Assembly (NCBI GenBank): GCA_029262355.1
Contig: JAJCZO010000094.1
Coordinates: 7,212-71,211, forward strand
Reading direction: 5' to 3'
DNA length: 64,000 nucleotides
Source of the DNA: Deltaproteobacteria bacterium
Lineage (GTDB): Bacteria; Desulfobacterota; Binatia; UBA12015
Below the pieces are notes generated by a model that worked only from the letters and a program-made list of their open reading frames with translations, was not told the origin of the DNA and searched no databases. Position 1 is the stretch's first letter. Each line of letters begins with the position of its first letter. Made by a program: the position numbers and the translations under genes. Positions 3 through 14,347 of the stretch are shown here, piece after piece.

Positions 3-1286
3 GTGCGGAGCTTCGCCGGAGTCGGCCGCGTCGTCGCCGACCTCGCGAGACGTGCCGCCGACGTATCGGGCGCTCTTCTGCTTCTGACCGTGCTCTCTCC
101 CGTATGGATCATACGGGGAGCCATCGGCCTCGCCCACCAGGAAGCACTGATCGAGCACGACCGCCGCATCGGGCGCTTTCGCGAACCGTTCCGCCTCCTG
201 CGGTTCTCGGGAACCGGCATCGGCAGAGGCCTGCCCGTCCTCGTGAACATCCTTCGAGGAGACATGTCGTTCGCCGGCCCGCGACCTATGACGCAGCAGG
301 AAGCCGACGCGATCCCGCCGGACGGGCTCGTGCGCTTCGCCGTTCGTCCAGGACTCGTCTCGCGACATACACTCCAGAAGCGGACGGGGATCGCTCACGA
401 CGCCGAAGTATCCGCCGACCGCGAACACTACTACGAGCAGACGCTCCGCGGAGACCTGGGCCTCGTCGCCCGGTCGATTCCGGCGACCATCCTCGGAAAT
501 CGCGACGAAATCGCGGCGCCTCCGTTCCTCGACTTCTTCGGTGTGACCATCGTCAACACGACGATGGACGAAGCGATCGATTGGATCCAGGCCCGCGCAG
601 CGGACCGCGACCGAACGCCTAGCCAAATCGCGTTCGTCAATCCGGACTGCCTCAACATCGCGCATGCGCATGAAGAGTATCGCGCCGTTCTACAAGGCTC
701 GGATCGCGTCCTCCCCGATGGCATCGGCATTCACGTCGGCTGCCGTCTGCTGGGCACGCCGCTCAAGGAAAACGTCAACGGGACGGACCTGTTTCCACGG
801 CTCTGCGAGAGGGCTGCGCAGACGGGCCAGTCGATCTACCTCCTTGGTGCTCGTCCGGGCCTCGCGATGGCGACGGCGGACGCCATGCAGGCCAAGTACC
901 CAGGTCTTGCGATCGCCGGCGCACGCCACGGCTACTTCACCCAAGAGCAAGAACAAGACGTCATCGATGACATCAACGCGTCGGGCGCGTCGATACTTCT
1001 CGTGGCATTCGGCGTGCCGAGGCAGGAGCTCTGGCTCGCAAAGACCCGAGACCGTCTTCACATCCCCGTACAGATGGGCGTGGGCGGCCTATTCGACTTC
1101 TACTCGGGTCGAATCGCACGAGCACCCCAGTGGCTGCGCGAGCTCGGCATGGAGTGGTCGTGGCGCCTCCTCCAAGAGCCCGGCCGCATGTGGCGTCGCT
1201 ATCTCGTCGGCAACTGGGTCTTCCTGTACCGCGTATGGAAGCAGTCGCGCCGGTCGCCGGCACCGCACGCCCAGGGGGCATCGTGA
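3..1286 (+). CDS. Fusion protein: degenerate bacterial sugar(-phosphate) transferase domain (N-term) + WecB/TagA/CpsF (GT26) glycosyltransferase domain (C-term). Probably 5'-partial at the window edge.
   Basis: The N-terminus has a hydrophobic segment (LLLLTVLSPVWII) followed by IGRFREPFRLLRF...GDMSFAGPRP, resembling the KFRTM...GPRP core of polyprenyl-P sugar-P transferases but lacking the middle segment. The C-terminal ~250 aa (FVNPDCLN...LPDGIGI...LLGARPG...GVPRQELW...GVGGLFDFYSGRIARAPQW...EWSWRLLQEPGRMWRRY) is a typical TagA/WecG/CpsF family domain. The ORF begins at nt 3 with GTG and no upstream stop is visible. Confidence 0.7.
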   Translation: MRSFAGVGRVVADLARRAADVSGALLLLTVLSPVWIIRGAIGLAHQEALIEHDRRIGRFREPFRLLRFSGTGIGRGLPVLVNILRGDMSFAGPRPMTQQEADAIPPDGLVRFAVRPGLVSRHTLQKRTGIAHDAEVSADREHYYEQTLRGDLGLVARSIPATILGNRDEIAAPPFLDFFGVTIVNTTMDEAIDWIQARAADRDRTPSQIAFVNPDCLNIAHAHEEYRAVLQGSDRVLPDGIGIHVGCRLLGTPLKENVNGTDLFPRLCERAAQTGQSIYLLGARPGLAMATADAMQAKYPGLAIAGARHGYFTQEQEQDVIDDINASGASILLVAFGVPRQELWLAKTRDRLHIPVQMGVGGLFDFYSGRIARAPQWLRELGMEWSWRLLQEPGRMWRRYLVGNWVFLYRVWKQSRRSPAPHAQGAS

Positions 1287-2029
1287 GTCAGACCCTGAGC
1301 CAGGATCAGCAGGCGAGCGAAACCCGCGAAGAGCTCCTCCGTCGGTACGCGGGTGGGGGCGCTCCATCGAAGGGGTGGCGACTCCGTTTCCAGCTGAAGC
1401 AATTCGCATGGGTCTCGGTCGTCACCGCGACTCGCGTCGCCAAGCGAATCCTGGACGTGTTCGGTTCGATCACACTCGCGATCGCCTTGGCGCCGCTCTT
1501 CCTCGTCGTGATCGCACTCATCCGATTCGAGTCGCGGGGGGCGATCCTCTTCGCGCAACAGCGCGTCGGGCGTCACGGCCGACTGTTCAAGATGTTCAAG
1601 TTCCGCTCGATGTACATCGATGCCGAACAGCGCAAAGCGGCGCTCATGCCGACCAACGAGATGGAAGGGGGCGTCATCTTCAAGATGAAGGACGACCCCC
1701 GCATCACGAAAGTTGGCAAGTACGTCCGTCGTGGTTCGATCGATGAGCTTCCGCAGCTCTGGAATGTCTTCAAGGGAGAAATGTCGCTCGTGGGCCCGCG
1801 CCCCCCGCTTCCCGCCGAGGTCGCCGAGTACTCCCTCGAGGACCGACGTCGGCTCGAGGTCGTTCCGGGCATCACCTGCATCTGGCAGGTGTCGGGCCGC
1901 TCGGAGATTCCGTTCGACCAGCAGGTGGCGCTGGATGTCGGATACATCGAGTCGCAATCGGTGTGGCTCGACCTGAAGCTTCTCCTCCGCACGGTTCCTG
2001 CGGTTTTGTTGGGGAAGGGGGCGTACTGA
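1283..2029 (+). CDS. Polyprenyl-phosphate sugar-phosphate transferase (WbaP/EpsL-like short-form initiating transferase)
   Basis: A single TM helix (ITLAIALAPLFLVVIALI) is followed by QQRVGRHGRLFKMFKFRSM...DELPQLWNVFKGEMSLVGPRP, the canonical bac_transf motifs. The GTG start at 1283 overlaps the upstream TGA stop (GTGA), indicating translational coupling. Confidence 0.8.
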   Translation: MSQTLSQDQQASETREELLRRYAGGGAPSKGWRLRFQLKQFAWVSVVTATRVAKRILDVFGSITLAIALAPLFLVVIALIRFESRGAILFAQQRVGRHGRLFKMFKFRSMYIDAEQRKAALMPTNEMEGGVIFKMKDDPRITKVGKYVRRGSIDELPQLWNVFKGEMSLVGPRPPLPAEVAEYSLEDRRRLEVVPGITCIWQVSGRSEIPFDQQVALDVGYIESQSVWLDLKLLLRTVPAVLLGKGAY

Positions 2030-2030
2030 A

Positions 2031-3509
2031 ATGCAGGTGGTTCTATTCACCGATCGTGCCGGGAAGGCACTCGCGCCGTTCACCGATCGGACCTGCACCG
2101 CATTGCTCCCTGTAGCGGGAAAGGCTCTCGCGATTCACGCCCTCGAATCCATCGCGCGGATCTCCCCGTCGAAGGTCTTCGTCGTCGTCTCCCCCCATGC
2201 GGATGCCGTCGAATCCGACCTCGAGGACGGCCGCCGATGGGGCCTCGATCTCGAGTACCTGCTGACTCGCGGCGACGAAACGCCGGACGCGATCATCGAT
2301 CGTCTTCGCCCAAAGCTCGAAGGTGACTTCCTGGTCGTGCGCGGCGACGTACTGCTCTCTCCGTGCTTGCCCGAGTTTCTCCAGCGAGCCACCAGCCTTC
2401 GCGGCGCGACGATTGCCGCCACCATCGGCGGCGCACCGACCGGCGTTCGCCTCGTGCGCGCCGAAGCGACGGGCCGACTCGATCTTCCGTACGAACCAGA
2501 ATCGCGAGAGACCTGGAAGGAAGACGCGCCCACTGTCGAGCTTCCCAATGCACGCTTCTCCCGCATCGAGTCTCTCGCCGCTTTTCACCGCGCCAACCTC
2601 GACGCCGCCGACGGAAAGTACACCGGCTTGATCATCCCAGGCCGCACCGTGAAGCCCGGAATCGTGGTCGGACGCCAGAGCCGGATTCCTCTCGAAGTAG
2701 TCAAGGCGGGACCCGTCTTCATCGGAAGCCGATGCGACGTGAAGAGCGGCGCCGAGATCCACGGAAGCGTCGTGCTTTCGGACGACGTCGTCGTCGACCG
2801 AAGTGCGACACTCCGATCGGCCGTGATTCTGCCTCACACGTACGTCGGTGAGATGGTCGACGTGTCGGACGCGATCGTCTGGAGCAACGATCTGGTGCAC
2901 CTCGATAGTGGTGCCGTCGCTCACGTCACCGACGAATTCCTCCTCGCCGACCTGGGTGCGGCGGGACTGGAAGAGGGCGCCGCCGAAATCGTGCATCGCG
3001 CGATCGGCGCCATGCTCCTCGCCTTGTCCCTGCCCCTGTGGCCCTTTCTGTTGGCTGCCTCGCTGCTCTCCGACTTGAAGTCGCCCCTGCGGACGATCCA
3101 GCTGATCGGAAACCGTACGACCTTGGGCCCCGACGGCCAGCGAATCCGCACGACGTTCGCGGCGACCGAGGCCGCTACCAGGGTCCCGCTATTGCGACAC
3201 CTTCCGCTCCTCGTGGCAGTCGTGCGTGGAGACATCCGACTCGTCGGCGTCTCGCCACTTACTCCCGAGGAAGCATCGAAACGAACCGAAGACTGGGAGC
3301 GGCTGCGCGACCGCGCGCCGGCCGGCCTCCTGGGTCCAGCCCAGCTGAGTCTTTCCGGCGACGCACCCGAAGAAGAGCGCTGGGTGCTGGAAGCCTACTA
3401 CGCCCAGACCCGTACGCCGGCGAGCGACTTCGTGTGGCTAGCCCGTGGCCTCGGCGCACTCTTCAGTCCACGCGCATGGGGACCCGGCCTCCGGCCGCGC
3501 ACTTCCTAA
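2031..3509 (+). CDS. Tripartite fusion: NDP-sugar pyrophosphorylase-like nucleotidyltransferase + left-handed beta-helix (LbH) + degenerate sugar-phosphate transferase C-terminal domain
   Basis: The N-terminus (LLPVAGKALAIHALESI...VVRGDVLL) has an NTP_transferase fold with a degenerate Gly-rich loop (AGKALAPFT instead of GxGTRLxPLT). Hexapeptide LbH repeats follow (GSRCDVKSGAEIHGSVVLSDDVVVDRSATL). The C-terminus has a TM segment (LLALSLPLWPFLLAASLL) and ...VVRGDIRLVGVSP, comparable to GEMSLVGPRP in the neighbouring transferase. The ATG lies 1 nt after the upstream stop. Confidence 0.65.
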   Translation: MQVVLFTDRAGKALAPFTDRTCTALLPVAGKALAIHALESIARISPSKVFVVVSPHADAVESDLEDGRRWGLDLEYLLTRGDETPDAIIDRLRPKLEGDFLVVRGDVLLSPCLPEFLQRATSLRGATIAATIGGAPTGVRLVRAEATGRLDLPYEPESRETWKEDAPTVELPNARFSRIESLAAFHRANLDAADGKYTGLIIPGRTVKPGIVVGRQSRIPLEVVKAGPVFIGSRCDVKSGAEIHGSVVLSDDVVVDRSATLRSAVILPHTYVGEMVDVSDAIVWSNDLVHLDSGAVAHVTDEFLLADLGAAGLEEGAAEIVHRAIGAMLLALSLPLWPFLLAASLLSDLKSPLRTIQLIGNRTTLGPDGQRIRTTFAATEAATRVPLLRHLPLLVAVVRGDIRLVGVSPLTPEEASKRTEDWERLRDRAPAGLLGPAQLSLSGDAPEEERWVLEAYYAQTRTPASDFVWLARGLGALFSPRAWGPGLRPRTS

Positions 3510-3524
3510 GAGAGAGGGAACACA

Positions 3525-4637
3525 ATGTCCGGCAAGCAAGAGATCACACCCGGCTTCTCCCGTGCAGACCTGCATGTCCACACGACATTCAGCGATGGAA
3601 CGGCCACCCCCGAGGATCTGCTGAACTACTACGCACTGCATTCGGAGGTGAACGCCTTCGCAGTGACGGACCACGACACGATCGACGGCGCGCTACACGC
3701 GAAGAGATTCGCCGAGGAGCACCCCGATCTGTTCGGGCATCTCGACGTCATCATCGGCGAGGAGGTTTCGACCCGTGACGGACACGTCATTGGGCTCTAC
3801 CTCACCAACTGGATCTCGCCGGGGATGAGCGCCGCAGAAACGATCGACATCATTCATGAGCAGGGCGGCCTCGCGATCGCGGCGCATCCGTACACGAGCT
3901 GGATGAAATTCGCGGGCCTCGTTGGCGTGGGAGACCTGATCAAGACGCTGCCGTTCGACGGCGTCGAGACGAAGAACGCCAACTTCACGGAGATGTTCGC
4001 GAACCGCAGAGCCGAACGTAAGGCGGGGACGCTCGCCCGCATCGGAAATTCCGACGGCCACTTCCTCGACGCGATCGGACGCTGCTTCACCGAGTTCCCG
4101 GGACAGGGCGCCGCGGATCTTCGAACGGCGATCGAGCAACGCACGACGACCGCCGGCGGGTCCTGTTACGGGGTGCCGACGCTGGCACGTTTTGCGATGG
4201 ATCGACTCATGAAGGGCGAGTGGGTCATCCCACGCCGCCACCGGGTGAGGCGCGAATCGCAGGCGGGCGAACTCGAGATCCGGATTCACGAGGATTCCTC
4301 GCTCTCCGCTGCGGTGCTGTCCCCCGTCGGTCGCATCGATGCCGCATCGATGCCCGAAATGAAAGAAACGCTGACGATGCTCACCGGAGCGAAGGTCAGC
4401 GTCATCCTCGACCTCTCCGAAGTGCACTTCCTCGGGTCGCCTGGCGTTACCGCGTTGGTTGCGGGGCTGAAGAGTGCGCGCCAATCGGGCGTCGGATTCT
4501 GCCTGGCGAAGCTCTCGACGCCCTGCATCCAGACCTTGTCGGCGGCGCGACTTCTGTCGGTGTTCCCACGGGCGCGCGACGTAGGCGAGGCCCGGAAGCT
4601 GGTCAGCACCGACGCCCTGCAGCTGGCTGAGGCTTAG
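3525..4637 (+). CDS. PHP-domain phosphoesterase (TrpH/YciV-like) fused to a C-terminal STAS (SpoIIAA-like anti-sigma-factor antagonist) domain
   Basis: PHP motifs are present: [22 protein letters not shown]. The C-terminal ~110 aa ([41 protein letters not shown]...) is a typical STAS fold. A strong SD (GAGAGAGGGA) lies 7 nt upstream of the ATG. Confidence 0.75.
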
Positions 4638-7600
4638 CTCAACCAGGCGCGGGCGTTTCGAAAGAGCTTCATCCAGGGTCCATCTTCGCCCCACGATGCA
4701 GGGTGCCAAGAGTGTTGGACCGTGCGGAACACCCGCTCGGGGTGAGGCATGAGGATCGTCGCACGCCCATCCGGGGTCGTCAGACCGGTGATCCCGTCGG
4801 CCGAGCCATTGGGGTTCGCCGGGTAGCGCTGCGCCACGATCCCGTCGTTGTCGACGAACCGAGCCGCAACGAGACTGCCGTCGAGCATGCGAGCTTGCGC
4901 CGCTTGCGACGGAAACTCCACGCGCCCCTCACCGTGCGCAACCGCGATCGGCAGGCGCGCACCCGCCATTCCGCGCAGCAGGATAGAAGGGCTTTCCTCG
5001 ACTCGCACGAGCGCGAGGCGAGCCTCGAACTGCTCGGATCGGTTCCGCACGAACCGCGGCCATCCCTCGGCTCCCGGAATCAGTTCTCGAAGCGCGGACA
5101 GAGCCTGACACCCGTTGCACACCCCGAGCGAGAACGTGTCGGCGCGCTCGAAGAAGGCCGCGAAACCCGCTCGTAGCTCTTCGTGGAACAGGATCGACTT
5201 GGCCCAGCCCTCGCCAGCGCCGAGAACGTCGCCGTACGAGAAACCGCCGCACGCCACGAGGCCACGGACGTCCGAGAGGGACACCCGCCGCGTGAGGAGG
5301 TCGCTCATGTGGACGTCGATCGCTGCGAAGCCGGCGCGATCGAACGCGGCCGCCATCTCCACGTGGCCGTTCACGCCCTGCTCGCGCACGTTCGCGATCT
5401 TGGGTCGTGCGCCCGTTGCAACGGACGGCGCGTCGTTCGGGTCGAAAGGCAACCGTACGTTCAGCCCTGGATCAGTCGCGTCCAGCCGCGCCGCGTGCTC
5501 CTCCTCTGCGCAGGCGGGATCGTCGCGCAGAGCCTGCATCCGGTGCGTCGTCTCGGACCACGCGTCGCGCAGATCGGAGCGCGCCTCGTCGAGGAGCACG
5601 TTCGTGCCGGCCCTCACGACGATCCGGTCGTCGCTCCGCGGCGATCCGATCCGCCAGCAGAGACCCGCGAGGCCACGCGCCTCGAGCGTCGCCAGGATCC
5701 GCCCGGAGTCGCCTCGCTTCACCTGAACGACCGCACCGAGCTCCTCGGTAAAGAGAGCGGCGACTGGGTCGGAACCCAACCCTGCGAGGTCGACATCGAC
5801 CCCAACCCGCCCGGCGAACGCCATCTCGACGAGGGTAGCGAGAAGTCCGCCGTCGGAGCGATCATGGTAGGCGACGAGATCTCCGACCGAGGTCAGGCCG
5901 ATCAGCGCATCCGCGAATGCCTTCAGCCGCAGGGGCTCATCGACGTCCGGAGGCTCGGACCCGACGGTGCCGAAGACCTGAGCCAGCGCCGATCCACCGA
6001 GGCGGTTTCGCATCGCGCCGAGATCGACGAGCAAGAGATCGGTCTCGCCGACGTCCGAACGCAATTCCGGCGTACAGGCGCGTCGCACATCGGAGATGCG
6101 CGCGAAGGCCGAGACGATGAGTGAAAGCGGCGCGGTGACGCTTCTCTCCTCGTCGCCTTCGCGCCATACGGTGCGCATGGACATCGAGTCCTTCCCCACC
6201 GGAATCGCGATACCGAGCTTCGGGCAAAGATCGACGCCAACCGTCCGCACGGCGTCGTACAGACCGGCGTCCTCGCCGGGATGACCCGCCGGCGCCATCC
6301 AGTTCGCAGACAGCATCACGTCGCCAAGGGTGTCGATCCCAGCCGAAACGAGGTTCGTGACCGCTTCGCCGACGGCCATTCGCGCGGACGCCGCGGGCTC
6401 CAGGAGCGCTACCGGAGTGCGCTCGCCTATCGCCATCGCCTCGCCCCGGTAGCCGTCGAAGTCCGCCGCGGTCACCGCAGCGTCGGCCACAGGAACCTGC
6501 CACGGCCCCACCATCTGATCACGCACGATCTGCCCGGTCACGGTCCGATCGCCGATGCTGACGAGGAAGGTTTTGTCGCCCACGGTCGGGAGTCGCAGAA
6601 CACGAAGCGCAGCCTCACGAACGTCCAAGCCTTCGGTGACGAAGCATGCGGGCTCGAAGGGGAGGTGCTCGGCTCGGCGCTGCATCTTCGGAGGCTTGCC
6701 CAGAATGACCGACAGTGGGAGATCGATCGGAGCGTTGTCGAACTGGCGATCGGCCACCAGGAGCAGGTCCTCCGAAACCGCCTCGCCAAGAACCGCGAAC
6801 GGCGCCCGCTCACGCCGACAGATCTCCGCAAACACCTCGAGCCGGTCTTGTGAGAGCGCAACGACGTACCGCTCCTGTGCCTCGTTGCACCAAATCTCGA
6901 GTGGCGACATGCCCGGCTCGTCGTTCGGGATCTCGCGGAGCTCGAACGTGCCTCCACGATCGCTGCCGTGCACGAGTTCCGGCAACGCGTTCGACAGCCC
7001 TCCCGCGCCCACATCGTGGATCGACAGGATCGGGTTCTCGTCGCTCAGCGCCCAACACCGGTCGATCACTTCCTGACAGCGCCGCTCCATCTCCGCGTTC
7101 TCGCGTTGCACCGACGCGAAATCGAGATCCTGGTGACTCGCACCCGAAGTCATGGACGACGCGGCGCCTCCGCCGAGTCCGATACGCAGAGCCGGACCAC
7201 CGAGCACGACCAACGGAGAGCCCACCGGAATGTCGAGCTTGTGCACATCGGGCTCGCGGATGTTGCCGACACCACCCGCCAGCATGATCGGCTTGTGGTA
7301 CCCGCGAACCTCGTCTCCGTTCGGTCCCGGCACGCGCTCTTCGAAGGTGCGGAAGTAGCCGCAGATGTTCGGTCTTCCGAACTCATTGTTGAATGCGGCG
7401 CCGCCGATCGGCCCCTCGAGCATGATGTCGAGTGCGGACGCGATGCGTTCAGGCCGCCCAAAGTCGCGCTCCCATGGCTGCTCCGCATCCGGAATGCGCA
7501 GGTTCGAAACCGAGAAGCCTGTGAGCCCGGCCTTCGGTTTCGAGCCGCGCCCGGTGGCACCCTCATCGCGAATCTCGCCGCCGGAACCGGTTGCAGCACC

Positions 7601-8521
7601 GGGAAACGGGGAGATCGCGGTCGGGTGGTTGTGGGTCTCCACCTTCATCAGGAAGTGCACCGGCTCTTCACGCGCCCCGTACTCCCGCGTCACGGGGTCC
7701 GGGAAGAACCTCCGCGCCGACCCACCCTCGGCGACCGATGAGTTGTCGACGTAGGCGGAGAGCACGCCGCCCGGAGACCGGTCGGTCGTGTTCCGGATCA
7801 TCGCGAAGAGGGAGCCCTCTTCGGTCTTTCCATCGACCACCCAGCTGGCATTGAAGATCTTGTGGCGACAATGCTCCGAGTTCGCTTGCGCGAACATCAT
7901 GAGCTCGACGTCATTCGGGTCTCGGCCCAGCGCTCGGAAGCTCGTCTCGAGATAGTCGATCTCATCCTCGGCGAGCGCGAGACCGAGCTGGGAGTTCGCC
8001 GCGACGAGTGCCGCGCGCCCCTCCTCTAGAAGCGGAACCCGATCGAAGGTGCGCGGTGCAGCGACGGCGAAGAGCTGCTCCGCCTCGGCGTGCGACGCGA
8101 GCACCGACTGCGTCATTCGGTCGTGCAGGGCCGGAGTGATCGCCGACACCAGCGCGTCTGGCGAGCCGGAGCCGACGACCCGGTACGAGATGCCTCGCTC
8201 CAACCGCCGGACCTTGGCAAGGCCACAGGAGCGCGCGATGTCTGTTGCCTTCGACGACCAGGGCGAAATCGTCCCGATGCGCGGCACCACCACCAGCAGC
8301 GTCCCGGGCGCCTCGGCGCGGTCCGGCGAGACCGACGGACCGTAGCGAAGGAGCTGCCCGAGAACGTCGGCCTCCCGATCGTCCAAGACGCCGTCGACGT
8401 CGGCGAAGTGGACGTGTTCGGCGTCGAGCCGCTGCAGATCAGGCACCTCGCGCCGCACCCGGGCGAGGGTCCGCTCGAGTCTCGACTCGGAAAGGGCGGG
8501 ACCGCCTCGCAGGACGAGCAT
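4634..8521 (-). CDS. purL: Phosphoribosylformylglycinamidine synthase, single-chain large form
   Basis: The 1295-aa ORF has the FGAM synthase N-domain, the AIRS-like repeats, and the C-terminal glutamine amidotransferase (GVCNGCQ...HGEGR). Its 3' end overlaps the convergent PHP-STAS gene by 4 nt. Confidence 0.95.
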
Positions 8522-8589: not shown

Positions 8590-9768
8590 TCAAATGATCC
8601 CGTTGGCCGCGAGAGAGGCGCGCTCGTCGCGCGAGAGGCCGAGCCAGTCGCCGTAGATCGCGTCGTTGTCTTCACCCAGCGCACGGGCGAGGTGGCGAAT
8701 CTCACCTGGGGCCTCGATGCGACGGGGCAACGGCGCCGTGAGGACGAGGGGACCGATCTCAGGGTCCTCCACCCGGGTGAAGCTCGCACGGGCCCCGAAG
8801 TGGGGGTTCTCCGTTACCCCGAGCGGGCCGTCGACCGCGCAGAGGGAGACCCCAGCTTCGGCGAATTCATCGACGACCTGGGTGCACTCCCGACCGGCAA
8901 TCCATGCCCCGATGACTTCATCGAGCGCCTCGACGTTCTCCACGCGGGCCCCGTTCGTCGAGAACCGCGGATCGTCGATGAGCTCCGGGCGCCCGAGCAG
9001 CGTGAAGACGCGCCTCACCAGCCCGTCCGTGCCGGCCGTCAGAGCGACCCACTGCCCATCTGCCGTCGCGTAGGTATTGCGGGGCGCCATCGTCGAGAGC
9101 CGGTTTCCGTGGCGGCCGGGATCCGCGCCGTGGCGATTCGCCGCCGCGATCCGTCCGCTGAGCAACGCGAGGAGTGGCTCGTACATTGCAACATCGAAAG
9201 CCTCGCCCTCCTCCGATGTGCTCCGCGAGTAGAGACCGACCAGAGCCGCTATGATTCCCTGCATCACACCCAGAGTGTCGCCGAGCCCCACGGGCGAGAG
9301 GCCCGGCGGCGCATCCGAGGGACCGGTGAGCGCCGCCAATCCCGTCATCGCTTCGGCCAGAGTTCCCGACCCCGGTCGATCGGCCCACGGCCCCGTGGTC
9401 CCATAGGCGGTCAGATTCACGATCACGAGCTGGGCAAAGCGCTCACGCAACGACTCGACTTCGAGCCCGAAGCGCCGCAGGCGCTCTGCCGTGTGCCCAC
9501 AGACGAGCACATCGGCCCGAGCCAGCATCCGATCGAGGACCGCCCGCCCGGCCGGACGGGTCAGATCGAGACTTACGCATTCCTTGTTTCGGTTGACGAT
9601 CTTCCACTGCAGAGCCACACCGCTCGCGTCGACGAGGCGGCGCAACGGATCCCCCCGGGGCGGCTCCACCTTGATCACGCGCGCGCCAAAGTCACCGAAG
9701 AACGCCGCGATCTGAGGAGCGGCAGCGAGCGTCGCGATGTCGATGACCGTGAGTCCGGTGAACGCCAT
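8590..9768 (-). CDS. CoA-transferase family III (CaiB/BaiF family) protein
   Basis: MAFTGLTVIDIATLAAAPQIAAFFGDFGARVIKVEPPRGDPLR is the canonical family III N-terminus. The start was refined to the ATG at 9768, which is internal to the longer track ORF. Confidence 0.8.
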   Translation of the reverse strand: MAFTGLTVIDIATLAAAPQIAAFFGDFGARVIKVEPPRGDPLRRLVDASGVALQWKIVNRNKECVSLDLTRPAGRAVLDRMLARADVLVCGHTAERLRRFGLEVESLRERFAQLVIVNLTAYGTTGPWADRPGSGTLAEAMTGLAALTGPSDAPPGLSPVGLGDTLGVMQGIIAALVGLYSRSTSEEGEAFDVAMYEPLLALLSGRIAAANRHGADPGRHGNRLSTMAPRNTYATADGQWVALTAGTDGLVRRVFTLLGRPELIDDPRFSTNGARVENVEALDEVIGAWIAGRECTQVVDEFAEAGVSLCAVDGPLGVTENPHFGARASFTRVEDPEIGPLVLTAPLPRRIEAPGEIRHLARALGEDNDAIYGDWLGLSRDERASLAANGII

Positions 9769-9959
9769 GAGCCCTCGGCGGTGGTTGGCTACCGCGTCGG
9801 AGCGGCGGCTGGGTTCCATCGAGACTTGCCAGAAAGTCGCGCGGAGCGCGACAGGAACATCCACGGCGCAATGTAGTCCCTGGTCGCACCGACGGCGCCG
9901 CCACCGCTCCGGGCACGCTCACTTGACCTCATTCCAGCGAGGGCCGTAGCCTGGGGCGC

Positions 9960-11006
9960 GTGAGTGGCCCCGTACGGCTCGGATTTCTCGACGACACGCC
10001 CAGGGGCGCGGACCGAGCCCTCCTCGACCGGGCGCTCGCATTGGCGAGAGAACGTACCGCCCGGACGGGCCGCTTCGATGATCCCCTGGATCTCCAGATC
10101 GTCCGGGCCGAAGGACTGCCCCGCGGAAACGCGCACGCCGTCGAGGAGGCGTATGCAGAGCTTGCCCATGCGGGCGTAATGGCCGTCCTCGGCCCGGCGA
10201 TCGGCGACAACGCGCTGATCGCAACATCGCTCGCCGACCAGTTCGGGCTCCCAACCTTGAACTTCGCTGGAACCGAGCGCGCGCGGAGCCAGCAGATGTT
10301 CCACCTCCAGATCGGCTCGCACGAAGAGGAGCCGGTCCTGATCGCCCACCGGCTCGCGCGCGGCGGACACCAGCGCGTCGCGATGTTGTTCGAGGAAGCG
10401 ACCATCGGGGCGCGGTACGCGGCGTTCTTCGCCAAGGCGTGCGTCGCTGCCGGCCTAGACCTCGAGCAGCGCGTCGGCCTGCGGCCAGAGCAGGACCCGA
10501 ACGAAGCCGTACGGACCGCCGTCCGCGACGCACCGGACGCCTTGGTCTATCTCGGCCTCGGCCTCGAGCTGCCGCGGGTCACGCCCGCACTACGCACGAC
10601 GGACTTCGTGGGCTCGCTCGTCTGTAACTCATGCGGCATGTTCGGGTGGGCGGGTGCTCCATTCACCGAGGCCGTCGAAGGTTGGCGCTACATCGACGTT
10701 TTCAGCGAAGAGAACCCCGCGTTTCTCGCCGCGCGGGACGCACTCGGCCTCGGCGAGGACTCGGGGCCAACCGGGCTCGTGTACGCCGACCTCGCAACGC
10801 TCGTGGTCGAAGGGCTGGCCCACGCACCAGAGCGTACCCGCGACGGACTACGCGACGGACTCGAGCAGGTGAAGGCCATCCCGTCGGCACTCGGCCTCCC
10901 GGGAACCCAGCTCGGCTTCGGCACCTGGGACCGTGCCGCGTTGAAGGGGCCCTACCTCGTACCCCGCCGCTGGACCAACGGGCGCTCCGTCGCCTGGACC
11001 GACTGA
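9960..11006 (+). CDS. Leu/Ile/Val-binding-protein-like (Peripla_BP_6) ligand-binding protein with no recognisable signal peptide
   Basis: VRLGFLDD...LDLQIVRAEGLPRGNAHAVEEAYAELAHAGVMAVLGPAIGDNALIATSLADQFGLPTLNFAGT matches the LivK/amide-receptor fold. The N-terminus is not hydrophobic. Confidence 0.55.
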   Translation: MSGPVRLGFLDDTPRGADRALLDRALALARERTARTGRFDDPLDLQIVRAEGLPRGNAHAVEEAYAELAHAGVMAVLGPAIGDNALIATSLADQFGLPTLNFAGTERARSQQMFHLQIGSHEEEPVLIAHRLARGGHQRVAMLFEEATIGARYAAFFAKACVAAGLDLEQRVGLRPEQDPNEAVRTAVRDAPDALVYLGLGLELPRVTPALRTTDFVGSLVCNSCGMFGWAGAPFTEAVEGWRYIDVFSEENPAFLAARDALGLGEDSGPTGLVYADLATLVVEGLAHAPERTRDGLRDGLEQVKAIPSALGLPGTQLGFGTWDRAALKGPYLVPRRWTNGRSVAWTD

Positions 11007-11010
11007 CCAC

Positions 11011-11730
11011 TCAGGCCTGGACACCGGCGGCGATCTTTCGCGCCAGGTCGAGATCTTCGGGGAAGTCGATCTCGGTCCACAGCAGGTCATCCATCAACTC
11101 GAAACCGACGTCCACCTGCGCGAGAAGCTCCGGGTAGACCTCTTCGTGCTCGAGATCGATATCCCCTTGCGCGACACGCACGCCGATGAGATCGCGAAGC
11201 AGATTCGCCGCGATCTGGCCCAGCTTCAAGAACCCCACCGATTCGCCAAGCCGGTCGTACGCCCCGCGTGGAATCCGCGCGATGTCGAAAACGCGGTCTC
11301 CCTGAACCATCAGCATCTGCTCCTCTCCGCTCGCCTCGGAACGGGGGTCGAGCAAGAAGCAGCTCTCGTGGCGCGAATCGACCAAGCGCGCGATCATCTC
11401 GTCGGGCCCGAAGACGTCGGCGTCCATGACGAGCACCGATCGATCGAGCCATTCGCGCGCCGTGAAGAGCGACAGGATCGCCCCGCGTCGGAAATCGGGA
11501 TTCCGCAGGACCCGGATGTCAGGCGCACCGCCAAAAGCGGCCTCGACGTGCTCACCCCCGAACCCGACGACTACGACGATCTCCGGCACGCCCGCGGCTC
11601 GAAGCTGGCGAACGAGGCGCCCCAGAAGAGTCTCTCCCGCCACCTCGAGGAGCGCCTTCGGACGATCTTCGAGTGTGGAGCCAAAGCGCCGACCGACGCC
11701 GGCCGCGAGAATGATCGCCGATGGCTTCAT
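11011..11730 (-). CDS. LicC/PntC-like cytidylyltransferase (putative CTP:2-aminoethylphosphonate or phosphocholine cytidylyltransferase)
   Basis: MKPSAIILAAGVGRRFGSTLEDRPKALLEVAGETLLGRLVRQL resembles the LicC/PntC N-terminus. The ATG at 11730 overlaps the phnW stop (ATGA). This is the last gene of the phosphonate operon. Confidence 0.7.
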   Translation of the reverse strand: MKPSAIILAAGVGRRFGSTLEDRPKALLEVAGETLLGRLVRQLRAAGVPEIVVVVGFGGEHVEAAFGGAPDIRVLRNPDFRRGAILSLFTAREWLDRSVLVMDADVFGPDEMIARLVDSRHESCFLLDPRSEASGEEQMLMVQGDRVFDIARIPRGAYDRLGESVGFLKLGQIAANLLRDLIGVRVAQGDIDLEHEEVYPELLAQVDVGFELMDDLLWTEIDFPEDLDLARKIAAGVQA

Positions 11731-12797
11731 GCGAGAGCTCTCCCGAGCGATTCGAGGAAGCGGTCGAAGTCGTCGACCGAGAGAGCGCCCATGTTCGCGA
11801 CACGAAAAGCCGTGGCACCCAGCTGTCCCTGGCCTTCGTAGATCACGAAGCCGTCGGCTTTCAGATGGTCGTGCAGCGACTCGTACGTCGCCCCCTCCGG
11901 CAGCCCAATCGTCGTGATCGAGTTCGAGCGCCATTCGTCGGGCAAGAGGATCTCGAGACCGAGGCGCGCGAAGCCCGCGCGAAGTTGGCGGGCCGCGCGC
12001 GCGTAGCGCTCCACCCGGCCGGCCACGGTCTCCTCCAGAAGCTCGTCGAGCGCTTCGTCGAGCGCGTACAGGACTTGGACCGCGGCGGTGAACGGCACCG
12101 TACGCTTCTCGTGGGCCGCGAAGTGCCGGGGGAGGTGCAGGTAGACGCTCCGCTGCGGAATCTCGGCCATCCGCGCCATCTCCGACCGCCGGGCGAGCAC
12201 AAACCCGACTCCCGGCACGCCCTGGATACACTTGTTGGCCACCCCCACGCAGATGTCGACGCCCCAGCCTTCGACGTCGATCGGATCACCGGCGAGGCCG
12301 CTGATCGAATCGACCAACAGCAGTCGACCGGCGTCTCGCACCACGCGGCCGATGCCTTCTATGGGGTTGCGCAGACCTGTCGTCGTCTCGTGGTGCACGA
12401 CGGCGACGACCTCGATCGCAGGATCGGCGCCAAGCGCCGCGGCAATCCGTGCGGGATCGGCCCGCTCGGTCCACGCCCACTCGAGGACCACGACGTCGAC
12501 GCCATGCGTTTCCGCCATCTCGCGAATGCGCGCTCCGTACACGCCGTTCTCGACGACGAGCATCTTGCGGCCGGTGGAAACCGCCGAGCTCACGGCGGCC
12601 TCGAGAGCCAAGGTGCCCGAACCGGTGAGCGGTACCGCCGCCCAGTCACCGTCGGGAGCGAAGGCCCGAACCAGCTTCGTGCGAACAGCGTCGAGGAGGT
12701 CGCTGAACTCGGGCTCCCGATGGCAGAGGTCCCCCCGCAACATCGCCTCCGTGACCCGCGGACTCACGTTCACAGGCCCGGGGTTCAGCAGAATCAC
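11727..12797 (-). CDS. phnW: 2-aminoethylphosphonate--pyruvate transaminase-like class V aminotransferase
   Basis: ILLNPGPVNVSPRVTEAML...VVHHETTTG...GVANKCIQGVPGVGFV is typical of PhnW (AGT family). The GTG start at 12797 overlaps the ppd-beta stop (GTGA). The upstream portion of the long track ORF is discarded because it overlaps ppdB. Confidence 0.75.
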   Translation of the reverse strand: MILLNPGPVNVSPRVTEAMLRGDLCHREPEFSDLLDAVRTKLVRAFAPDGDWAAVPLTGSGTLALEAAVSSAVSTGRKMLVVENGVYGARIREMAETHGVDVVVLEWAWTERADPARIAAALGADPAIEVVAVVHHETTTGLRNPIEGIGRVVRDAGRLLLVDSISGLAGDPIDVEGWGVDICVGVANKCIQGVPGVGFVLARRSEMARMAEIPQRSVYLHLPRHFAAHEKRTVPFTAAVQVLYALDEALDELLEETVAGRVERYARAARQLRAGFARLGLEILLPDEWRSNSITTIGLPEGATYESLHDHLKADGFVIYEGQGQLGATAFRVANMGALSVDDFDRFLESLGRALA

Positions 12798-13369
12798 GCC
12801 GTGCCTCCGAGCGCGGCCCGCATGCGCGCGGTCATCTCCTGGGGCGTAAACGGAATTCGCGGCGCGGACGGACCGGACTCGGGCGCGGTCTCGACCAGAA
12901 GCAGGCTCGGACCCTCGGCACCGGCGAACTCGGCGACCCTGGCGTCGAGCGACGCCCGATCGCGCACGCGAGCCACGCGCGCATAGCCCGCCGCCGCGGC
13001 GATCTCGTCGAGCGGTACTTCGGGGGAGATCGTCGGCTGATTGCCAGTCGAGGCGTAGACGCCGTTGTCGATCACGAGGTGAAAGAAGCGCTTCGGCTTC
13101 GACACGGCGATCATGGGCAGCGTTCCGAGGTTCATCAGAACGTTGCCGTCGCCGTCGAGAACCGCGACCGGCTGGTCGGGCTGCGCAATCGCGATTCCGA
13201 GTCCGATCGAAGACGCCAGCCCCATCGAGCCAATCATGTAGAAGTGCGACGGCCGATCCCGCACCGAGCAGGCCCAACGGGAGATGAAGCCATTCGCGCA
13301 CACGACCGCGTATCCATCGAGCGCTGGCATGGCCGCTTCGACCGCATCTTTCGTCGTGAGCGCATTCAT
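12794..13369 (-). CDS. Phosphonopyruvate (or sulfopyruvate) decarboxylase beta subunit (TPP-binding C-terminal half)
   Basis: The GDG...N thiamine-diphosphate motif is present (LDGDGNVLMNLGTLPMIAVSKPKRFFHLVIDNG). The ATG overlaps the alpha-subunit stop (ATGA). Confidence 0.75.
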   Translation of the reverse strand: MNALTTKDAVEAAMPALDGYAVVCANGFISRWACSVRDRPSHFYMIGSMGLASSIGLGIAIAQPDQPVAVLDGDGNVLMNLGTLPMIAVSKPKRFFHLVIDNGVYASTGNQPTISPEVPLDEIAAAAGYARVARVRDRASLDARVAEFAGAEGPSLLLVETAPESGPSAPRIPFTPQEMTARMRAALGGTA

Positions 13370-13869
13370 CCCAAAACTCCTGGGGGCACGACCAACGCCA
13401 CGGGCTTCTGGTTCGCGTCAAAGCGATCGCGTGCCCATCGAGCGTCGTCCTCGAGCGGACGCTTGCCGAGAGCCCGCCACTCGATCTCGTAGGCGTCCAG
13501 CAGGTTCGGCATGACCCTGCCCATGACCAGATGCTCGGGGGCATCTTTTCCACCGAAGCCGCGCCAGGTGATCACCAGCAGACACGGGAGCTCGTAGATC
13601 TGCTGCAGCGAGCCAATCGCATTCAAGGAGACCCCCAAGCCCGAGTTCTGCATCAGCACGACAGGACGCCGGCCGGCCATGAAGGCCCCGGCCGCGAGAC
13701 CCATGGCCGCGTCCTCCCGCGTCTCGGCCACGTACCCCCGATCCGCCAGGGCGACCAGAACCGAACCGATCAACGAGCACGGCACGCCGGTGAAGAAATC
13801 GAAGCCTACGCCCTCGAGCGCAGAGGCGAAATCGGCCCCCTTGAACGTGGCATCACCCGAATCGCTCAT
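13366..13869 (-). CDS. Phosphonopyruvate (or sulfopyruvate) decarboxylase alpha subunit (TPP pyrimidine-binding N-terminal half)
   Basis: MSDSGDATFKGADFASALEGVGFDFFTGVPCSLIG...VLMQNSGLG is a Ppd/ComD-like N-domain. The start was refined to the internal ATG at 13869; the 63 codons upstream in the track ORF have no similarity to this family. Confidence 0.75.
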   Translation of the reverse strand: MSDSGDATFKGADFASALEGVGFDFFTGVPCSLIGSVLVALADRGYVAETREDAAMGLAAGAFMAGRRPVVLMQNSGLGVSLNAIGSLQQIYELPCLLVITWRGFGGKDAPEHLVMGRVMPNLLDAYEIEWRALGKRPLEDDARWARDRFDANQKPVALVVPPGVLG

Positions 13870-13982
13870 CGGGCCCCTTGTAAACGTCGGGGGCTCACGA
13901 TGACAACTCTGCGCCAAGAGACCCGAGTGAGATGCTCGGCCAGGTGCTCCGCATTCGCTGGGATGCTGCGGTAGCCGACCTA

Positions 13983-14347
13983 ACCATCCGGTCGAATCAG
14001 GTAGAGAGATGGGCCCGCGACGTCGAACCGCCGCGCCAGCAGCCCGGCTACGTCGCAACCCGCGCTCAGACCGCGCGGCCGAGCCGCCCCGTCATCAGGC
14101 GAAAGAACGACGTAGGCATCGAGCAACGGAGCCCGGTCCTCGACCATCGCGGGCGCCGTCGAGGGTCTCGCCCTTGGTCAGGATGCTGGCATCGGGTAGC
14201 GGCCGAAAGGCCAAAGCCGGACGCCCAGATGGGGTCGAGGCCCGCCTCCTCGACGAGTCGTGCGGAGAGGGCATCGTGAACGCCACAAACGACGACCTGG
14301 GTCCCAAGTGCGAGGCGTCGCCGCAGTGATTTCGAGGGCGGGAGCAT
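13983..14347 (-). pseudogene. pepM: Decayed phosphoenolpyruvate phosphomutase gene: a 5' fragment with at least two frameshifts and the 3' two-thirds missing
   Basis: Reading the minus strand gives three pieces. Frame 1 (from 14347): ...VVCGVHDALSARLVEEAGLDPIWASGFGLSAA, the PepM N-terminus. Frame 2 (+1): PLPDASILTKGETLDGA, comparable to GLPDAGLLTMTEVADHA. Frame 3: MVEDRAPLLDAYVV, comparable to AVDLPVIVDADTG, then ...AGCDVAGLL, with a stop near 13983. Only ~480 nt separate the upstream gene from ppdA, too little for an intact ~900-nt pepM. Confidence 0.55.

Follow-up and report, generated by a model that had tools for sequence, protein, structure and literature searches.

The initiating phosphoglycosyl transferase (PGT) commits scarce undecaprenyl phosphate and nucleotide sugars, and the post-translational gating of this step is only starting to be understood. 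Phosphorylation of CapM is one known way of gating a PGT. The EpsW-EpsZ pair of Myxococcus is another post-translational control of such an enzyme (PMC12802240). The heterocyst polysaccharide layer of Anabaena depends on All4160, a STAS-Bac_transf protein under the control of HenR –a receiver-SpoIIE phosphatase– and the kinase Alr3423; the authors of that work report that STAS-PGT fusions are rare outside cyanobacteria (PMC13555669). Here, we describe three consecutive genes at the start of a 64,000-nucleotide (nt) stretch of DNA (the window) from a Deltaproteobacteria bacterium of the Binatia (assembly GCA_029262355.1, contig JAJCZO010000094.1, positions 7,212 to 71,211 of the forward strand). 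All three encode proteins with a domain of the PGT fold, and only the middle one has the features of an active PGT. Taken as a whole, our reading is that of an active PGT (gene 2), a membrane-tethered glycosyltransferase of family GT26 for the second step (gene 1), and a non-catalytic, probably regulatory subunit (gene 3), and we hold it with moderate confidence. The dead PGT copies probably serve as membrane anchors or regulatory parts.

The open reading frames (ORFs) of genes 1 to 3 were confirmed on the plus strand between positions 3 and 3509, where the original prediction, made from the DNA letters, had placed them. Gene 1 (3..1286, +) joins a pseudo-PGT domain to a GT26 (TagA/WecG/CpsF) domain in one protein, as supported by the ORF, Pfam and NCBIfam. 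Gene 2 (1283..2029, +, GTG start) encodes a canonical small monotopic PGT (monoPGT). Gene 3 (2031..3509, +) encodes a pseudo-nucleotidyltransferase, a left-handed beta-helix (LbH) and a pseudo-PGT domain, according to Pfam, NCBIfam and an AlphaFold model. The tight coupling described in the prediction was also present: the start codon of gene 2 (GTG, 1283) and the stop codon of gene 1 (TGA, 1284-1286) share bases in a GTGA, and the TGA of gene 2 (2027-2029) is followed by one spacer base and the ATG of gene 3 (2031). For gene 1, the fusion stood and the start at position 3 did not, this being the window edge. The 5′ end lies outside the window: the identical protein of the source contig (P0121) has 452 amino acids (aa), and the first gene 1 codon in the window corresponds to its Val26, with 25 N-terminal residues missing. 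For gene 2, the source record uses an upstream ATG (1235), giving a protein of 264 aa (P0241) and a 52-nt overlap with gene 1. We favored the GTG at 1283 because the orthologues have 244-250 aa.

Gene 2, judged by its sequence, carries every conserved catalytic feature of a small monoPGT. It matched Bac_transf (PF02397) with an E-value of 7.4e-65 over profile positions 1-178 of 179 (Pfam), and aligned to the catalytic domain of Salmonella WbaP (E 1.2e-51). The full domain, all motifs and the Pro-kinked re-entrant helix that define the monoPGT superfamily were found in it. Its catalytic Asp154-Glu155 dyad is encoded by GAT GAG (1742..1747, +), aligned to 'sldelpql' of WbaP. A 40-residue segment (aa 110-149; 1610..1729, +), with the pattern D-P-R...G...R, has no counterpart in genes 1 and 3 and includes R149, the equivalent of PglC Arg88. 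To compare relatives, we used 79 related loci from a species-level genome collection (scanned with a nine-sequence alignment, ORFs mapped by phmmer) and aligned their PGT-like domains with MAFFT and hhalign: 69 of gene 2 type, 64 of gene 1 type and 79 of gene 3 type. A separate motif scan for the dyad and P-R-P covered 360 cluster representatives from the protein database. The K-R-x-x-D, K-F-R-S-M, D-P-R, D-E and P-R-P motifs were invariant in 69/69 gene 2 orthologues of the loci alignment, and in the database family both D-E and P-R-P were present in 119/119.

The domains of genes 1 and 3 are homologous to that of gene 2 and have lost what an active PGT needs. With Bac_transf scores beyond the curated thresholds, neither match is due to chance: gene 1 reached 61 bits (cut-off of 27; E 1.3e-16), with the best stretch covering only profile positions 91-176, and gene 3 reached 32.9 bits (vs. 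27; E 5.9e-08) at positions 88-177. Against the gene 2 domain, hhalign matched both over the full length (gene 1: 99.6% probability, E 1.6e-23; gene 3: 97.3% probability, E 2e-11). They share with it the elements of the PGT fold, namely the Pro-kinked re-entrant helix, the beta-hairpin, the G-D-hydrophobic-x-x-x-G core and the C-terminal helices. The K-F-R-S/T-M motif is absent from both, and the aligned orthologues of gene 1 (64/64) and gene 3 (79/79) all have a gap opposite residues 110-149 of gene 2, reproduced by hhalign. Residues 337-369 of WbaP correspond to the mobile loop with which PglC forms its substrate pocket (PMC10942596), and in PglC, Arg88 is needed for undecaprenyl phosphate binding and Arg145 has also been implicated (PMC10519829). 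The stretch deleted from genes 1 and 3 matches WbaP 337-369, the mobile loop / helix-turn-helix region, and contains the Arg88 equivalent. Moreover, the D-E dyad was found in none of the gene 1 and gene 3 orthologues of the loci alignment and in none of the relatives in the motif scan (0/112 for gene 1 and 0/119 for gene 3), the Asp position being occupied by Arg (72) or Lys (12) in gene 1 and by Arg (113) or Lys (4) in gene 3. It is very likely that neither flanking PGT-like domain would work as a PGT enzyme. The original prediction of three consecutive transferase-domain proteins, with only the middle one canonical, is upheld by these results: the catalytic residues are not intact in all three, as in simple paralogues, nor do genes 1 and 3 lack homology to the transferase domain.

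In gene 1, the pseudo-PGT domain (3..518, +) was delimited by phmmer alignment to WbaP and PglC in the PDB, by column statistics of the 64 orthologues and by the hhalign match. At the dyad site of PglC and WbaP it has Arg-Gly (AGA GGC, 225..230, +; 'igRGlpvlvn' vs. 'slDElpqlfn'). It retains R-x-x-D, the S-P kink of the re-entrant helix (approximately nt 48-131) and G-P-R-P (nt 279-287). These features extend to the family: P-R-P or P-R-A was present in 109/112 database relatives, the equivalent of Pro71 at the helix kink in 63/64 orthologues, and Arg or Lys at the position of PglC Arg145 in 48/64. The model of a gene 1-type protein displayed a helix-break-helix at residues 25-66, and the 64-orthologue alignment revealed near-invariant Arg residues proper to this family.

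The GT26 domain of gene 1 (531..1250, +) is apparently intact. It matched Glyco_tran_WecG in Pfam (E 2.3e-65, profile 2-168), which together with the mid-domain gap of its pseudo-PGT bears out the predicted pairing of a shortened, degenerate transferase with a GT26 enzyme. It aligned to Thermoanaerobacter TagA (7mpk) with an E-value of 5e-49 over residues 4-226, with 'lPDGiGi' kept, and the region of the TagA C-terminal appendage also aligned. We take Asp65 of TagA, within the P-D-G motif that gene 1 keeps, to be the catalytic base. A modelled gene 1 orthologue superposed on TagA with a TM-score of 0.95 and a root-mean-square deviation of 1.3 A. Among the NCBIfam models, TIGR00696 scored 165 bits (cut-off of 69). 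The scores were below the TarA and WecG equivalog cut-offs, and therefore no specific reaction was assigned.

Natural fusions join the first two genes. Single ORFs with pseudo-PGT, GT26 and PGT domains (genes 1+2) were found in five loci and in at least 11 database proteins of 647-689 aa; in these proteins, the dyad is missing from the N-terminal PGT-like domain and present in the C-terminal one. Such triple fusions of ~650-730 aa occur in Methylococcaceae and Shewanella (L042 7929-9998, L051 1486-3558 and L083 7727-9928); further examples are the proteins P0163, P0166, P0167 and P0175, among others.

Gene 3 belongs to a family of ~490-aa proteins that are annotated as "NDP-sugar synthase" or "sugar phosphate nucleotidyltransferase" (NDP, nucleoside diphosphate). 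Its AlphaFold model had a mean predicted local distance difference test score (pLDDT) of 90.1. The first domain (2031..2615, +) matched NTP_transferase (PF00483; E 9.6e-07, 29.1 bits vs. 21.2), and its matches to the NCBIfam nucleotidyltransferase models were all far below cut-off. It has the fold of the family and, judged by its residues, is catalytically dead. It reads 'TDRAGKAL' (nt 2049-2072) in place of 'AGGxGTRL' and 'CTA' (nt 2094-2102) in place of 'PKP', and alignment to GMPPB and 8x7s/tlr0611 placed G-K-A opposite G-T-R and C-T-A opposite P-K-P. The family signature is A-D-R-x-G-x-E-L / C-x-A in place of G-x-G-T-R-L / P-K. Among 116 gene 3 relatives, the position of the catalytic Arg held mostly Glu (77), Ala (20), Gly (8) or Asp (6), and that of the catalytic Lys mostly Val (55), Ala (28) or Leu (14); Arg and Lys, respectively, were found in none. 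The Gly-Gly ahead of the catalytic site is replaced by a conserved Asp/Asn-Arg, and D8, R9 and E13 are conserved. By structure, Foldseek retrieved UDP-glucose, GDP-mannose and ADP-glucose pyrophosphorylases (E 8e-21 to 1e-11), with a cyanobacterial UTP-glucose-1-phosphate uridylyltransferase (8x7s, E 8e-21) as the top match; it also retrieved non-catalytic folds, such as GMPPA (in the GMPPA/GMPPB complex), the VTC1-KJC2 complex and eIF2B epsilon/gamma.

The original prediction had proposed a covalently channelled mini-pathway, with sugar activation by gene 3, transfer to undecaprenyl phosphate by gene 2 and second-sugar addition by gene 1. In such a pathway, gene 3 would make the NDP-sugar at the membrane, and the PGT-like domains would only tether the three active sites close to one another. 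The pyrophosphorylase fold of gene 3, with its G-D motif and Glu83 retained, the tight gene coupling and the conserved gene order speak for it, as does the existence of PGT fusions with sugar-modifying domains, a known class according to PMC12802240, which cites a network analysis of monoPGTs. However, the catalytic Arg and Lys are gone from 116/116 relatives, the best PDB sequence match of the gene 3 N-terminus is the non-catalytic eIF2B epsilon, and this domain is the least conserved of the six compared (37% median identity). We consider this pathway improbable as a whole. Its first step, sugar-1-phosphate activation, is not supported; the PGT step followed by the GT26 step for the second sugar is plausible and has support from the natural gene 1-gene 2 fusions.

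The rest of gene 3 also follows the predicted architecture. The LbH (2616..2951, +) is of the GMPPB_C / eIF2B-epsilon type (PF25084, PF24894 and PF25087, LbH/hexapeptide), and in the model it forms a beta-strand ladder at residues 205-307. The pseudo-PGT domain (2964..3506, +) begins with a re-entrant helix pair (aa 312-332 and 334-347; nt 2964-3071) that breaks at S333-L-P335 in the model. The kink lies within an invariant L-S-L-P-L-W-P, and the equivalent of Pro71 was present in 77/79 orthologues. At the dyad site it has Arg389-His390 (nt 3195-3200; 'llRHlp' vs. 'slDElp' of PglC). Where PGTs have P-R-P, gene 3 has V-S-P, and its relatives V-S-P, V-E-P or V-T-P; the orthologues also lack the N-terminal K-R-x-x-D. 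With both of its enzyme-like domains degenerate in sequence, gene 3 looks like a double pseudoenzyme.

The altered residues of both flanking domains could be read differently, as the mark of another catalytic or carrier role, in which the domains bind, hydrolyse or hand over undecaprenyl diphosphate (Und-PP)-linked intermediates through the conserved Arg and, in gene 1, P-R-P and basic residues. The replacements are indeed conserved (Arg in 113/119 for gene 3; Arg or Lys in 84/112 for gene 1), and gene 1 keeps R-x-x-D, P-R-P, the basic Arg145 site and its own near-invariant Arg residues. Nevertheless, this set of residues matches no known enzyme chemistry, the segment of the nucleotide-sugar pocket is deleted, and gene 3 has neither P-R-P nor an Arg145 equivalent (Pro at this position in 64/79 orthologues). 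A purely structural role accounts for the same conservation, and we regard a gained function of this kind as unlikely.

Another explanation would be that the flanking PGT-like regions are functionless paralogues or decaying duplicates. Their catalytic residues are lost, and they are less conserved than the catalytic domains: the median identity to distant orthologues was 64% for GT26 and 62% for gene 2, and the degenerate domains kept 37-48% to orthologues in other phyla (37%, 45% and 47.5% for the three domains of gene 3, the nucleotidyltransferase-like one being the lowest). Against decay, the architecture, the exact deletion boundaries and the invariant residues are kept across phyla and across more than 100 clusters at 50% identity, the frames are intact and translationally coupled, and the domains model at high confidence. 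Since cross-phylum identity is kept together with invariant family-specific residues, the degenerate domains are not decaying, and we find this explanation hardly credible. Thus, of the two options in the original prediction, we favor the one in which the degenerate domains are non-catalytic parts beside the active transferase: dyad and pocket segment are gone, yet the domains are conserved across phyla.

A full hidden Markov model search of 1.84 billion representatives retrieved 1256 proteins of the gene 3 family at E <= 1e-30, with well over a hundred full-length clusters at 50% identity. The closest relatives come from deltaproteobacterial metagenome-assembled genomes (MAGs), with 70-80% identity. 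The carriers include Competibacteraceae, Thiocapsa and other Chromatiaceae, Methylococcaceae (Methylococcus capsulatus, Methylovulum and Methylobacter), Thiomargarita, Marithrix, Binataceae, a Holophagales MAG, a Phycisphaerales MAG and, more distantly, Shewanella. Where 2.3 kb or more of sequence was available ahead of gene 3 (73 loci), a gene 2 orthologue was present immediately upstream in 66, a GT26 gene in 65 and both in 63; a search for the same arrangement in other genomes, as suggested by the prediction, thus recovered the trio in several phyla. The usual gene order is GT4, GT4, GT2, GT2, hexapeptide acetyltransferase, gene 1, gene 2 and gene 3, and in close relatives Poly_export, STAS and RsbW-like kinase genes lie farther upstream. 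For our locus, the context upstream of the window was taken from relatives at 71-80% identity. The best explanation is that the trio forms the 3′ end of a conserved exopolysaccharide operon and encodes its membrane initiation module.

Some loci depart from this arrangement. In Methylobacter sp. S3L5C and a near-identical metagenome contig (L001 and L002, 9365-9998), the gene 2 orthologue is split into ORFs of 75 and 119 aa; the active PGT of this strain could carry a frameshift or have become a pseudogene. Competibacter and related MAGs have gene 3 paralogues that stand apart from genes 1 and 2 (L014 10001-11470, L043 and L063); in L014, the neighbors encode a phosphopantetheinyl transferase and a thiopurine methyltransferase.

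Downstream of the trio, gene 4 (3525..4637, +) encodes a PHP phosphoesterase-STAS fusion (Pfam STAS, E 9.7e-13; PHP; PHP_C). It starts 15 nt past gene 3 and closes the operon, with purL (4634-8521, minus strand) running toward it from the other side. Its STAS domain has the usual phosphorylatable Ser, since the motif reads F-L-G-S-P-G, and its PHP part might take the place that a SpoIIE/PP2C phosphatase has in a partner-switching module. The position of the PHP-STAS gene after gene 3 is kept in close relatives (L003, L004, L006 and L007), and gene 4 is a probable regulatory partner. More broadly, in the 69 loci with enough flanking sequence, a STAS or RsbW-like (HATPase_c_2) gene was located within 1.5 kb downstream of gene 3 in 36 and anywhere in the fetched locus in 43, using profiles built from first-pass hits (the single-sequence first pass gave 30 and 37). 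In M. capsulatus, a receiver-SpoIIE phosphatase gene begins right at the stop of gene 3, and an RsbW-like kinase gene comes next. In a Candidatus Contendobacter MAG, a single ORF combines GT26 (WecG), STAS and NUDIX domains (L023 1554-3653); it lies 5.5 kb upstream of the gene 2 and gene 3 orthologues, which have no gene 1-type protein beside them. Within genes 1 to 3 themselves, the Pfam scan found no STAS domain.

Beyond purL, the minus strand of the window (8590-14058) encodes a family III CoA-transferase, a MobA/IspD-like nucleotidyltransferase and a thiamine diphosphate enzyme split into N and C halves. The corresponding block of the relative L004 extends into an aminotransferase and a phosphoenolpyruvate (PEP)-mutase fusion, which suggests a phosphonate pathway of the aminoethylphosphonate type; the PEP mutase was seen in L004 and was not confirmed in the window.

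Returning to the trio, we propose the following mechanism. Gene 2 alone would move the sugar-1-phosphate from an NDP-sugar onto undecaprenyl phosphate, yielding an Und-PP-monosaccharide. The dead PGT domain of gene 1 would be a monotopic anchor in the cytoplasmic leaflet, which would position the GT26 domain there for second-sugar addition; it keeps several residues that are linked to membrane insertion and to the recognition of polyprenyl phosphate. This anchoring role seems to us quite probable, and the domain may in addition hold the polyprenyl-diphosphate-sugar, with R-x-x-D, P-R-P and the usual basic residue at the Arg145 site being kept. Gene 3 would be a non-catalytic, membrane-anchored subunit that modulates initiation, coupling to it either the state of a STAS protein or the nucleotide-sugar pool; it would probably be the point of action of the neighboring STAS, RsbW-like and phosphatase proteins (here PHP-STAS). 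A regulatory role of gene 3 is a tentative proposal, held with less assurance than the anchor. We infer a physical complex and its regulation from the coupling of the genes and their neighborhood.

Several observations weigh against this reading. Small monoPGTs reportedly function as monomers (PMC12802240), and the dimer of WbaP is made by its accessory domain rather than its catalytic domain (PMC10942596); heteromers through PGT folds are therefore without precedent. Dimerisation as in WbaP was considered as a model for the heteromer and rejected, its interface being in the accessory domain. When a natural gene 1-gene 2 fusion was modelled with AlphaFold, the linker was disordered and the two PGT-like domains had no confident docking (predicted TM-score of 0.52). 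In M. capsulatus Texas (L061 8739-10010) and a related MAG (L056), a 423-aa polytopic membrane protein without a Pfam match replaces gene 2, and because the trio there has no PGT gene, an adjacent gene 2 is not a strict requirement for genes 1 and 3. Approximately 40% of the loci have no partner-switching gene within 10 kb, and some gene 3 paralogues, such as that of L014, are outside any polysaccharide cluster. Finally, new chemistry could have been built on the conserved Arg at the former Asp position.

A bolder version of our reading goes further, and we see it as rather doubtful. Gene 3 would represent an undescribed class of membrane-anchored protein that combines a dead nucleotidyltransferase with a dead PGT and acts as the output device of a partner-switching pathway: its soluble half would bind a nucleotide-sugar or a STAS protein, its PGT-like half would switch the neighboring initiating transferase on or off, and the dead PGT of gene 1 would have been reused as an anchor that holds the lipid carrier. 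Our literature search retrieved no description of catalytically dead PGT domains, although the main survey of monoPGT architectures was outside its coverage and may list them already. If our main reading is true, pseudoenzymes would join the monoPGT superfamily, and caution would be needed before calling every Bac_transf match an initiating enzyme or every such "NDP-sugar synthase" active. It would also provide a candidate target for STAS proteins of polysaccharide systems that are still without one, such as SypA of Vibrio fischeri.

When compared to known systems, gene 2 and the GT26 domain of gene 1 are ordinary members of their families. Gene 2 resembles small monoPGTs such as PglC (Campylobacter) and WbaP over the whole domain, whereas genes 1 and 3 are without the dyad and the D-P-R segment. 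Bifunctional monoPGTs (Bi-PGTs), such as Neisseria PglB, likewise join a PGT-fold domain to another pathway domain within a monotopic membrane protein, the partner being a sugar-modifying, glycosyltransferase or regulatory domain. However, the fused PGT of Bi-PGTs is a competent monoPGT, whereas here the PGT fused in genes 1 and 3 is dead and the active one is separate, or is the third domain of the triple fusions. The GT26 domain aligns end to end with TagA and would be expected to act, as TagA/TarA/WecG enzymes do, on an Und-PP-monosaccharide. TagA contacts the membrane only via its C-terminal appendage; gene 1 has, in addition, a PGT-derived monotopic anchor at its N-terminus.

For gene 3, the closest parallels are GMPPA (which regulates GMPPB), KONJAC (with VTC1), eIF2B gamma/epsilon and GlgD, with the same two-domain fold, a lost signature and a conserved domain. 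It differs from them in being anchored to the membrane by a pseudo-PGT, and its presumed partner is a PGT and not a pyrophosphorylase. The Vibrio syp cluster shares STAS, Poly_export, acetyltransferase, GT4/GT2 and PGT genes with this operon and is not known to have a GT26 or gene 3-like protein; we considered homology of the two and do not claim it. With All4160/XssP of cyanobacteria, a direct precedent for partner-switching control of a PGT, the likeness is in the STAS, RsbW-like kinase and phosphatase genes beside monoPGT initiation, here drawn from the gene neighborhood; in Methylococcaceae, receiver-SpoIIE genes abut gene 3. In those proteins STAS is fused to Bac_transf, whereas here it is separate, as PHP-STAS in the window or GT26-STAS-NUDIX in Candidatus Contendobacter. 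The locus suggests a third design for gating initiation, in which two conserved, dead PGT domains accompany the active enzyme, and which has a wide distribution among methanotrophs, purple sulfur bacteria, Competibacteraceae and several other phyla.

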